Assembly: GCA_046714175.1 (NCBI GenBank)
Contig: JBKKBI010000084.1
Coordinates: 26,284-90,283, forward strand
Origin: Acidimicrobiia bacterium
GTDB lineage: Bacteria; Actinomycetota; Acidimicrobiia; Spongiisociales; UBA11373
Length of the DNA stretch: 64,000 nt
Direction of reading: 5' to 3'
Every line of letters begins with the position of its first letter. The stretch's first letter is position 1. The notes beneath the pieces were generated by a model, which saw only the letters and a list, made by a program, of their open reading frames with translations, searched no databases and was not told the origin of the DNA. This document shows positions 19,400 to 22,335 of this stretch, in pieces. A program made the translations under genes and the position numbers.

Positions 19400-20752
19400 T
19401 CAATCGCCGGCCTCGGCCAGGCTTTCGGCGAGCGACGGGTGCGCCATCAGCGTGTCCACGAGAACGTCGACACGGATCCGCCCCTGAGCTGCGAGGGCGA
19501 GGATGCCGATCAACTCCGAGGCGTGGTGGCCGACGATGGTTCCCCCCAGCACCACGTGAGTGGCCGGATCGGAGATCAGCTTGGCAAAGCCCGTCGGGTT
19601 GCCCTGGATGAGTGCCCGCGGGTTGGCTGCGAATGGAACTTTGGTGATGCGCACTTTGCGACCCTCCGCCCGAGCATCCACCTCCTCCAGACCCACCGAA
19701 GCGATCTCTGGTTCCGTGAAGATCGCCTGCGACACCTTGGTGAGATCGAGCGGCTTCACGGGTAACCCCAGGGCATGGCGGGCGATCTTCCGTCCCTGCA
19801 TCGCGGCCACCGAGGCGAGAAGCATCTGGCCGGTGACGTCGCCGGCGGCGTAGACATGGGGCAGCGATGTCCGCTGCATCTCGTCGACCACGACGAAACC
19901 CTTCTCAGTCGCGATTCCGGCAGCGTCGAGGCCGAGGCCCTCGGTGTTGGGACGGGACCCGACCGCGAGCAGGGCGTGGCTGGCCACCACCCGGCGCCCA
20001 TCCTCGACGGTTACCACCACGCCGTCGCCATCACGGGCCGCGCTGTCGGCGCGGGCTCCCTTGAGCAGGTGCACGCCGCGCTCGAGGAAGTCCTCCTCCA
20101 GCACTGCTGCCACCTCCGGGTCGCGATGGGGTAGGACCTGCTGGCGACTCACCAGCAGCGACACCTCGGATCCCAGGCTGGCGAAAATGTGCACGAACTC
20201 GACTCCGGTCACACCCGACCCGATCACCACCAGGTGCTTCGGAATCGCCGCAAGGTGATAGGCGTGACGGGTGGTAATGATGTGGGATCCGTCGACTCCG
20301 GCCCACTCAGGTTCCCACGGGCGGGAGCCGGTGGCGATGACCGCAATGTCGAACTCGAGATCCTGACCCGCCGCGACCGCGGTGTGTGGACCGGTGAATT
20401 CTCCGGTGCCAGTAATGATCGCGACGCCCTGGGACTCGAGCAGTTCGCGAATCCCCGACGAGAGCCTGGCGGATATCCCATCGGCGCGCGTCGCGAGCGC
20501 GGCGACGTCCACCGACGGACTGCCGACACCCTCTATCCCCAATAGCGCGGCGCCGCGCAGTGAGTCGAGTCGCAGGGATGTGGCCACCATGGCCTTGGAC
20601 GGGATGCAGTCCAGGAGGTGCGCCGCGCCGCCGAGAATCGTCGATTCCACCACCGTGACGCGGGCGCCATGGATCGCCGCCGCGGGCGCGGCGGCGATCC
20701 CCCCGGGTCCGCCGCCGATGACGAGAACGCGTGGCCCGGAGTCTTCGCTCAT
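19400..20752 (-). CDS. lpdA: Flavoprotein disulfide reductase family protein, LpdA-like (NAD(P)H quinone reductase type lacking the CxxxxC pair)
   Basis: The internal ATG at 20752 ([18 protein letters not shown]) overlaps the mutase stop (ATGA). It has FAD and NAD Rossmann motifs but only a single Cys in the redox site (LLDCIPSK), as in M. tuberculosis LpdA Rv3303c. The 684-aa listed ORF is an N-terminal artefact that overlaps the upstream gene. Confidence 0.75.
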
Positions 20753-22335
20753 GAGGACGGACGGTAGTGACCGAACACTTCGCCCAACGCAGCCGACACC
20801 TCCCCGACCGTCGCTCCCGCCACCAGGGCGATCTTCATGACCGGAAGCAGATTGTCGCCGCCGGCGGCAACGCGGCGGACCCGTTCCAAAACCGCAGCCA
20901 CTGCCGCCTCGTCCCGTTGCCGCCGCCATTCGTCCAAACGCGCCACCTGATCGGCCTCGACGGCAGGATCGACGGGGACACCAGCTACCTGCGGCCCCGC
21001 CGCCTCCGCGAAGCGGTTGACCCCGACCACTACCGCCTCGCCGGATTCCACCGCACGCGCCTGGAGGTAGGCGGACTCTTCGATCATCCGCTGCACGACG
21101 CCGGATTCGACCGCGGCGACCGCTCCCCCGGCAACGGCGATCTCGTGCATCTTGGAACGGATCGCCTCTTCGGTTCGATCGGTGAGCCACTCCACGAAGT
21201 AGGAACCAGCCAGAGGGTCGACGGTGTCGGCAACACCGGACTCGAAGCCGATGATCTGCTGGGTGCGAAGGGCGAGCATCGCAGAATGCTCGGTGGGGAG
21301 TCCCAGCGCCTCGTCGAAGGCGTTGGTGTGCAGCGACTGAGTGCCTCCGAGGACCGCGGCCAGCGCCTGCAGAGCGGTGCGGACCACATTGTTCTCGGGC
21401 TGCTGAGCGGTGAGGGTGCTGCCTGCGGTTTGGGTGTGAAAGCGCATCTTCCACGACTCGGGGTCGCGGGCGCCGATCTCGTTCCGCATCTCGGTTGCCC
21501 AGATGCGACGGGCGGCGCGGTACTTGGCGATCTCCTCGAAAAAGTTGCTGTGCCCGTTCCAGAAAAACGACAGCCTCGGTGCAAACTCATCCACATCGAG
21601 ACCGGCCGAGATGGCGGCGCCGACATAGGCGAGCCCATTGCTGATCGTTATCGCCGCCTCTTCGGCCGCAGTGGCGCCGGCCTCGCGGACGTGGTACCCG
21701 CTGATCGAGATCGTGTTCCACGCGGGAAGCCGCTCGTGACAATAGGCAAAGAGGTCCGTCACCAGCCGCATCGAAGGACGCGGTGGGTAGATATAGGTGC
21801 CGCGAGCGGCGTACTCCTTGAGGATGTCGTTCTGCACCGTGCCGCGTATCTGATCGAGGGGGACCGATGCCTCCTCGGCGACGATCTCGTAGAGAAGCAA
21901 CAGGATCGCCGCGGTGGCATTGATCGTCATCGACGTGGACACCTCGCCCAGGGGCAATCCGTGAAGCAGGGTGCGCATGTCGTCGAGCGTGTCGATGGCA
22001 ACACCGACTTTCCCCACTTCCCCGCGGGCCAGTGGCGCGTCCGAATCGAGACCCATCTGCGTGGGCAGGTCGAAGGCGATGGAGAGGCCGGTCTGTCCTG
22101 CAGCCAGCAGCCGGTGAAACCGTTCATTGGTCGCGGCCGCGGTGCCGAAACCTGCGTACTGGCGCATCGTCCAGAGCCGCCCCCGATACATGGTCGGATG
22201 TGGGCCGCGGGTGAACGGGTACTCGCCTGGAGCGCCGAGCGCCTGCTCGGGATCCCATCCGGACAGGTTCGCCGGCCCGTAGACGGGATCGATTTCGAAG
22301 CCGCTGGAGGCGCGGCGAGGCTTGTCGGTGGTCAT
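20749..22335 (-). CDS. Methylmalonyl-CoA mutase family protein, catalytic (beta/alpha)8 domain only (528 aa, no B12-binding domain)
   Basis: Strong MCM alpha N-domain motifs (YAGFGTA..., [31 protein letters not shown]). It ends at ...[11 protein letters not shown], before the B12-binding domain. Confidence 0.85.

Follow-up and report, generated by a model that had tools for sequence, protein, structure and literature searches.

Two catalytic-only acyl-CoA mutase genes in an Acidimicrobiia genome, predicted to encode methylmalonyl-CoA- and isobutyryl-CoA-type large subunits, and their conserved gene neighbours

The DNA analysed here, referred to as the window, is a stretch of 64,000 nucleotides from an Acidimicrobiia bacterium (assembly GCA_046714175.1, contig JBKKBI010000084.1), with a G+C content of ~67% and with proteins whose nearest counterparts belong to uncultured Acidimicrobiia. 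It holds two genes for acyl-CoA mutases that comprise the catalytic domain only. Mutase 1 (20749..22335, − strand) encodes a protein of 528 aa, predicted to be the split catalytic (large) subunit of a mutase of the methylmalonyl-CoA mutase (MCM) type, while mutase 2 (46126..47769, − strand) starts with GTG and encodes a protein of 547 aa, predicted to be the large subunit of the isobutyryl-CoA mutase (ICM) type represented by IcmA; both are devoid of a B12 domain. Each of them overlaps a neighbouring gene by 4 nt. The stop of mutase 1 overlaps, in an ATGA (tcATGAgc in the sequence), the start of a gene for a single-Cys flavoprotein of 450 aa (19400..20752, − strand), which probably belongs to the type of the NAD(P)H-quinone reductase Rv3303c, also called LpdA. 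Mutase 2 is preceded by the genes for a membrane-anchored helical protein of 137 aa (48041..48454, − strand) and for a double zinc-ribbon protein of 92 aa with 8 Cys (47766..48044, − strand), the stop of the former overlapping the zinc-ribbon start (ATGA; ggATGAtc) and the stop of the latter overlapping the mutase start (GTGA; ggGTGAcc). An earlier sequence-only reading of the window had described the mutase-flavoprotein overlap and the chain of three genes that ends in mutase 2, and these junctions are real, with the correction that mutase 2 starts with GTG and not with ATG.

The only Pfam match of either mutase is PF01642, with E values of 1.7e-211 for mutase 1 (model positions 3-512 of 512) and 2.9e-208 for mutase 2 (positions 26-512 of 512), and the TIGR00641 model of the mutase N-terminal domain scores 716 and 699 bits, respectively, against a cutoff of 304. 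When the proteins are aligned to NF006944, a full-length MCM model of 721 positions, the alignments end at positions 552 (mutase 1) and 554 (mutase 2), which means that both lack the linker and the B12 domain; in the sequence-only reading, too, they had been said to end where the B12-binding domain would begin. Homologues named "mutase N-terminal domain/subunit" already number in the thousands. The closest ones to mutase 1 are Acidimicrobiia proteins with 82-83% identity that are named "methylmalonyl-CoA mutase N-terminal domain/subunit", and mutase 2 shares, among the matches listed, 58-62% identity with catalytic-only proteins of Streptomyces and other actinobacteria. Both mutases are 54-60% identical to proven B12 enzymes. 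In a collection of 5.8 billion proteins, the flavoprotein (P0241) and mutase 2 (P0121) are present at 100% identity, both from one NCBI contig of 111,006 bp, and mutase 1 is missing (best match, 83%); its gene may have been left uncalled or been flagged in the deposited annotation, though the open reading frame (ORF) is intact in the window.

The specificity sites of the two mutases were mapped by alignment to the MCM of P. shermanii (1REQ) and to its Y89F mutant (5REQ), counting chain positions. PMC7238569 names the positions of Tyr89 and Arg207 of this enzyme as those that determine specificity within the family, a Tyr/Arg pair being the mark of MCM. Mutase 1 shows Tyr (in RQYAGF) and Arg (in AARGTYIYP) at these positions, and the same pair is found in all nine mutase 1 orthologues examined. 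Mutase 2 shows instead Phe (in RQFAGF) and Gln (in IAQKEWIYP), and an F stands in the Y89F mutant where mutase 2 has its Phe. The Phe/Gln pair, which from the literature on IcmA and IcmF we take to be the mark of ICM, and which is said to go back as a signature to Ratnatilleke (1999) and Jost (2015), is present in mutase 2, in its close relatives, and in all of 80 distant loci, many of them from Streptomyces, the number of related loci with this pair reaching 82. These 80 loci, which served as an outgroup sample, are the matches listed from reference genomes with 55-62% identity to mutase 2. The radical-site pair Tyr243-His244 (SGYH; chain positions 242-243 of 1REQ) is kept in both mutases, and the HTQT and HTNA.DE motifs are intact. 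Judged on these residues, mutase 1 is an MCM-type large subunit and mutase 2 an ICM-type large subunit, both of them new members of kinds that are already known.

Two other members of the family were considered as candidates for the identity of these proteins and rejected. The best PDB match of both mutases is the large subunit HcmA of the 2-hydroxyisobutyryl-CoA mutase (HCM; 4R3U), with 520 bits for mutase 1 and 524 bits for mutase 2, and HcmA/HcmB also resemble the window mutases in their split large/small architecture. Despite this match, HcmA differs from them by an Ile at the Tyr89 position (RQIAGF), where the window mutases have Tyr or Phe, and by the Asp of its TDFD sequence (STDFDMP), since both window mutases hold an Ala at this HCM-diagnostic position (SIAFD or SVAFD). 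The second candidate was the fused IcmF, in which the B12 domain, a G-protein domain, and the barrel form a single chain of ~1,100 aa. With the corresponding model NF045497, whose cutoff is 1500 bits, the two mutases score just 326 and 343, and they match only its positions 704-1073.

The partners that such large subunits would require were searched for in the window in several ways. Neither a six-frame scan for the motif DxHxxG...SxL...GG, which was aimed at the B12-binding subunit, nor Pfam scans of all credible ORFs, nor profile hidden Markov models of the B12-binding small subunit and of the GTPase MeaB run on all six-frame ORFs of the window revealed a B12-binding subunit, and the latter two revealed no MeaB either, in agreement with the sequence-only reading. 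An Rfam search of the window returned no cobalamin riboswitch and no other RNA. The window does contain the gene for a PduO-type cob(I)alamin adenosyltransferase, which had also been noticed before; its longest ORF spans 32455..33081 (− strand), the true start being probably downstream of 33081, it scores 153.6 bits with TIGR00636 (cutoff, 108), and a syntenic copy exists in two related loci (L002/L003).

The outgroup sample indicates how such genes are usually arranged. In the 80 listed loci, all with catalytic-only mutases of the Phe/Gln type, a PF02310 small subunit lies directly alongside the mutase in 12, MeaB is encoded within 6 kb in 28, and neither of them is found in 44; for ten of the partner ORFs, a match to PF02310 or PF03308 confirmed the assignment. 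In view of this distribution, linked and unlinked partners are both normal, and a catalytic-only mutase gene is a known architecture rather than an unusual one. The same conclusion can be drawn from characterized enzymes. MCM occurs as a homodimer, a heterodimer, or a heterotetramer, and the catalytic subunit Msed_0638 of Metallosphaera sedula and its B12-binding subunit Msed_2055 are encoded by genes that lie far apart (PMC6759758). This split MCM (KEGG-style "mcmA1/mcmA2") is like mutase 1 in that its catalytic subunit consists of the PF01642 barrel only and holds the Tyr/Arg pair, and both enzymes are tied to the carboxylation of propionyl-CoA; a difference is the Rv3303c-type flavoprotein gene to which mutase 1 is coupled in translation in part of the clade. 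Mutase 2 is comparable to IcmA of Streptomyces cinnamonensis, which forms a pair with IcmB: it shares the Phe/Gln pair, the size of ~550 aa, and the lack of a B12 domain, and it is 58-60% identical to Streptomyces Phe/Gln proteins. We take icmB of S. cinnamonensis to be unlinked to icmA. As far as the titles of the cited references tell, the large and B12-binding subunits of ICM were cloned as separate genes.

Taken together, it is likely that the window encodes the large subunits of two ordinary split mutases dependent on adenosylcobalamin, one of the MCM type and one of the ICM type, with the small subunit encoded elsewhere and with neighbours that are most likely not mutase subunits. This interpretation is supported by the full-length catalytic subunits, by the intact specificity and radical-site residues, and by the existence, in other lineages, of relatives of the same type with PF02310 and MeaB genes alongside. 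Since the active sites are intact, PduO has been retained, and other split enzymes offer a precedent, we infer that the small-subunit and meaB genes are located elsewhere in the genome. Each large subunit would then form a complex with a B12-binding small subunit of ~130-150 aa that is the product of a separate gene, and MeaB and the PduO adenosyltransferase would service each mutase. Mutase 1, along with the adjacent propionyl-CoA carboxylase (PCC), would convert propionyl-CoA via methylmalonyl-CoA to succinyl-CoA, while mutase 2 would interconvert isobutyryl-CoA and n-butyryl-CoA in the catabolism of branched-chain amino acids or short acyl-CoAs. The flavoprotein, the zinc ribbon, and the membrane protein would be co-transcribed and translationally coupled neighbours, inherited in a syntenic genome backbone. 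The metabolic assignment agrees with the genes found next to the mutases, namely those for PCC beside mutase 1 and a BCKDH-like operon and an acyl-CoA dehydrogenase gene beside mutase 2.

Three observations count against this interpretation. First, profile searches found neither the small subunit nor MeaB in the window, in 14 loci with relatives of mutase 1, or in 43 loci with relatives of mutase 2. Second, the pair formed by mutase 1 and the flavoprotein, with its ATGA overlap, persists in relatives whose mutases are no more than 68-72% identical to that of the window. Third, among the closer homologues of the zinc-ribbon protein (group A, see below), a mutase 2-type gene with 69-88% identity lies directly downstream in all 32 loci with enough downstream sequence. 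The last two amount to stronger conservation than a chance adjacency would call for.

The first of these observations, the lack of PF02310 and MeaB both in the window and in the flanking DNA of 57 related loci, is the single point in favour of another idea, in which the catalytic barrels serve a cobalamin-independent function and do without any B12-binding partner; recruitment to a non-B12 function had already been put forward in the sequence-only reading. This possibility is nevertheless highly improbable. The Tyr-His motif of the radical site is intact in both mutases, which makes a role without B12 unlikely, as do the conserved specificity pair, the HTQT and HTNA.DE motifs, and the identity to proven B12 enzymes. 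The mutase sequences are strongly conserved across the clade, the PduO gene has been retained in the syntenic block, and unlinked small subunits are a documented arrangement (PMC6759758).

The flavoprotein has the fold of the class-I pyridine-nucleotide-disulfide oxidoreductases (Pfam Pyr_redox_2 and Pyr_redox_dim). At the CxxxxC disulfide site it reads AHLLDC, the first Cys being replaced by Ala, so that a single Cys is left, as the sequence-only reading had noticed. Among the NCBIfam models, NF005883 ("NAD(P)H-quinone dehydrogenase") fits it best, with 458.5 bits, just below the cutoff of 479, and its homologues carry this same name. The best PDB match is 1XDI, the Rv3303c-LpdA of Mycobacterium tuberculosis, with 306 bits versus 245 bits for a true lipoamide dehydrogenase. 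Both proteins hold the single-Cys motif GGAAxLxDC[IV]PSK, from which it follows that the flavoprotein of the window is not a lipoamide dehydrogenase; the identity as dihydrolipoyl dehydrogenase (E3) is ruled out by the lack of CxxxxC and by the score with TIGR01350 (378 bits; cutoff, 409). The two flavoproteins differ at the C-terminal His...Glu site, which reads HPSLAE in the window protein and YPSLSG in Rv3303c, and in the coupling of the window protein to a mutase gene. The position of Rv3303c in the genome of M. tuberculosis is presumably apart from mutAB.

The conservation of this pairing was followed from both sides, and the two samples gave different pictures. On the mutase side, the flavoprotein gene is absent from four close relatives, which are L001 (81% mutase identity), L002/3 (77%), L004 (83%), and L005-7 (83%), and in these loci the mutase gene is directly followed by a gene for an EamA transporter or for a CBS-domain protein. 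A strain-specific insertion of the flavoprotein gene was first supposed from these loci. On the flavoprotein side, this explanation was overturned, since a mutase gene of the Tyr/Arg type is found immediately upstream in 4/4 relatives, with the ATGA overlap in L155-157 (79% flavoprotein identity), L159/160 (77%), and L158 (69%), and with a gap of 209 nt in L161 (66%). The comparison of the match lists of the mutase and of the flavoprotein suggests that more co-located pairs exist. In a neighbour-joining tree of nine mutases, built without support values and rooted on mutase 2, the lineages that bear the flavoprotein form the two basal branches, and each lineage without it is sister to one that bears it; moreover, the identity matrices of mutase 1 and of the flavoprotein run parallel. 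The simplest reading of these sequence comparisons would be an ancestral mutase-flavoprotein pairing followed by at least three losses. The adjacency is conserved but dispensable in cis, and it is not unique to the strain; uniqueness to the strain was one of the grounds that the sequence-only reading had given for its own refutation.

From these data, it could be proposed that the flavoprotein serves the split MCM specifically as its redox partner. It would either use NAD(P)H to reduce cob(III)/cob(II)alamin and so supply PduO when the cofactor is loaded and repaired, or guard the radical enzyme against inactivation by oxidation. The gene order in the four flavoprotein relatives, three of them with the overlap, and the basal placement of the pairing in the rooted tree are in line with this proposal, and the PduO gene has been kept ~10 kb away in the same syntenic block. 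In addition, dedicated corrin reductases are known elsewhere, as is the case of PduS (PMC2982820) and CobR (PMC4083273), flavoproteins that reduce cobalamin for adenosylation or for the reactivation of B12 enzymes and whose genes accompany those of the pathway they serve. They are nonetheless unrelated in family to the flavoprotein of the window, and their relevance is limited to this speculative reading. The proposal is further weakened by the loss of the flavoprotein from the site in L001, L002/3, L004, and L005-7 while the mutase stays, and by what is known of the family, whose member Rv3303c in M. tuberculosis has been described as reducing quinones with NAD(P)H and as contributing to protection from oxidative stress (PMC9213004) and is not reported to be linked to mutAB. 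We regard such a partnership as unlikely.

The overlap itself contributes little to the argument. An overlap of 4 nt is possible at 6/37 same-strand junctions of the window, and overlaps also join genes that are clearly unrelated, such as PduO and an M17 leucyl-aminopeptidase, or a nucleotidyl-transferase and NucS. The stop of PduO and the start of the M17 aminopeptidase overlap by 4 nt (window 32455-32488), and this overlap is conserved in L002 (1798-1801). Overlaps of this kind are a habit of a compact, highly syntenic genome and weak evidence of partnership, which weighs against the flavoprotein as a partner of the mutase.

The synteny is well seen in the remainder of the mutase 1 block. 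The flavoprotein gene is followed after 38 nt, on the same strand, by the gene for an EamA-family transporter (18531..19361, −; PF00892), and an EamA gene also comes after the mutase or the flavoprotein in L001, L004, L005, L155, and L159. Convergent towards this unit lie the two genes of a propionyl-/acyl-CoA carboxylase (15185..18497, +), one for the carboxyltransferase (15185-16735, +; TIGR01117-like, 806 bits) and the other for the biotin carboxylase-BCCP protein (16674-18497, +; Biotin_carb_N, CPSase_L_D2, Biotin_carb_C, and Biotin_lipoyl). The conserved order of the block comprises a divergent PBP gene, mutase 1, the flavoprotein where present, EamA, the convergent PccA and PccB genes, and a biotin ligase gene, and the block, including the PCC genes, is present in all relatives with enough flank.

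With regard to mutase 2, the two small proteins encoded upstream of it lack a clear family assignment. The zinc-ribbon protein shows two CxxC...CxxC units in its sequence, and all of its Pfam matches (DZR, Zn_ribbon_4, and HypA) stay below the cutoff, as exemplified by HypA (25.9 vs 28.9) and DZR (23.2 vs 27.3). Its ORF is uncalled in the assemblies of L008 and L009 and yet is conserved there, with 60-67% identity and the same overlap onto the mutase start. A metagenome scan with an alignment of three sequences as the query retrieved 65 loci that fall into two groups, and every complete zinc-ribbon ORF of both groups holds exactly 8 Cys, an invariance that identifies this ORF as a real protein. 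Group A includes the homologues with at least 52% identity to the window protein, along with the exception of L122 (47%), which also has the membrane protein upstream. In group A, the membrane protein is encoded upstream in 28 loci. Group B (33-43% identity) has no mutase. Its zinc-ribbon genes (L130-L152; e.g., L133, 3066-3332) are flanked on one side by a divergent CinA/MoCF_biosynth gene, and on the other by a gene for a protein of 228 aa and then one for a SpoIID-domain protein.

The membrane protein has no match in Pfam or NCBIfam. Its family consists of 86 representative clusters among 1.84 billion proteins, with members of 64-209 aa and a lone outlier, which is a weak match to a repeat region of a 671-aa protein. 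An AlphaFold (AF2) model built from an alignment of 43 sequences predicts, with a pLDDT of 92, a transmembrane helix at residues 2-30 and a helical bundle, and this model has no significant fold match in the PDB (best E value, 0.9). The trio of membrane protein, zinc ribbon, and mutase is found in L008, L009, and ~40 metagenomic loci, where most of the stop/start pairs overlap. Neither of the two small proteins was found at the 80 listed distant Phe/Gln mutase loci, in contrast to mutase 2, which is preceded by both in overlapping genes. The trio is a robust operon that is restricted to one clade.

Such an operon leads to the question of whether the membrane protein and the double zinc ribbon are accessory factors of the IcmA-type mutase, either as a membrane tether or in the assembly or regulation of the large and small subunits. 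Some support for this role comes from the conservation of the trio (a mutase downstream in 32/32 assessable group A loci, the membrane protein in 28), from the invariant Cys residues of the zinc ribbon, and from the membrane protein model, which points to a real, well-folded family. On the other hand, the trio is limited to one clade and neither small protein accompanies the other listed Phe/Gln mutases, group B homologues of the zinc ribbon occur in unrelated contexts, the membrane protein has no structural analogue, and none of the 86 representatives of its family is fused to a mutase, B12-binding, or MeaB domain. Furthermore, the presence of a lipoprotein-like gene in the same operon suggests a transcription unit of mixed function. 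An accessory role of these two proteins is, all in all, unlikely. The broader proposal that all three neighbours are helpers specific to this lineage, with the flavoprotein acting along with PduO as a corrinoid reductase or redox guard for the MCM, and the membrane and zinc-ribbon proteins as a tether or adaptor of IcmA, is likewise improbable.

The sequence-only reading had proposed "split-type acyl-CoA mutases with non-canonical partners". The first part of this proposal stands, given the intact residues, while the second falls short, in view of the losses of the flavoprotein and of the overlaps between unrelated genes. Conserved adjacency adds some weight to non-canonical partners, whereas repeated loss, restriction to a clade, zinc ribbons without a mutase, and the high base rate of overlaps subtract from it, leaving a low-probability explanation. 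The window mutases are best regarded as the large subunits of ordinary split enzymes.

The genes around the trio are also shared with L008 and L009. The trio is preceded on its own strand, at a distance of 56 nt, by an acyl-CoA dehydrogenase gene (48511..49785, −; Acyl-CoA_dh_N, _M, and _1), and such a gene lies upstream in these two loci too. On the other side, 9 nt downstream of mutase 2, a lipoprotein-like ORF of 138 aa (45700..46116, −) holds an N-terminal LAGAC lipobox-like motif and has no family match in Pfam or NCBIfam; in L008 and L009, homologues of it follow the mutase. Further downstream, a 2-oxoacid dehydrogenase operon (38045..44642, −) has the same gene order in these two loci. 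It starts with a true LpdA, that is, a genuine E3 (43275-44642, −; TIGR01350, 444.6 bits against a cutoff of 408.8), followed by a fused E1 of 664 aa with alpha and beta in one protein (41235-43229, −; E1_dh, Transket_pyr, and Transketolase_C), a fusion also present in L008 and L009. The next genes encode an E2 identified by its Pfam domains (39732-41222, −) and a LipB-LipA fusion of 546 aa (38045-39685, −; LplA-B_cat, LIAS_N, and Radical_SAM), which measures 544-545 aa in L008 and L009.

Two further features of the window deserve mention. An ORF with DUF222 and HNH endonuclease domains (36814-37947, −), of a type common among the mobile HNH genes of actinobacteria, is located between the lipoate genes and a gene for an M24 peptidase, and another is found in L009 (20442-21446). 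The genes for Suf Fe-S assembly are arranged in two groups (57185-58471 and 62608-63903, −; 50870-53547, +) and include two SufB/D-like genes, SufC-like ABC ATPases, SufS, and a NifU-like gene. The two SufB/D-like genes are separated by unrelated genes for UDG, a sigma factor, and NucS, and one SufB/D-like gene shares an 8-nt overlap with that for UDG.

Above all, this analysis corrects what was probably an over-interpretation. It is normal for a catalytic-only mutase gene to stand without a B12 subunit gene next to it, and those of the window are best annotated as large subunits, one of the MCM type and one of the ICM type. Two residues suffice to tell the paralogues apart, and this readout would assign them, in uncultured Acidimicrobiia, to the catabolism of propionate and of branched-chain acyl-CoAs. 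The membrane protein belongs to an orphan family whose fold is predicted with confidence and has no structural relative. If the flavoprotein were indeed the physiological cobalamin reductase for the repair of the mutase, a gap that persists in most bacteria would be closed. Both conserved neighbourhoods constitute inexpensive leads.

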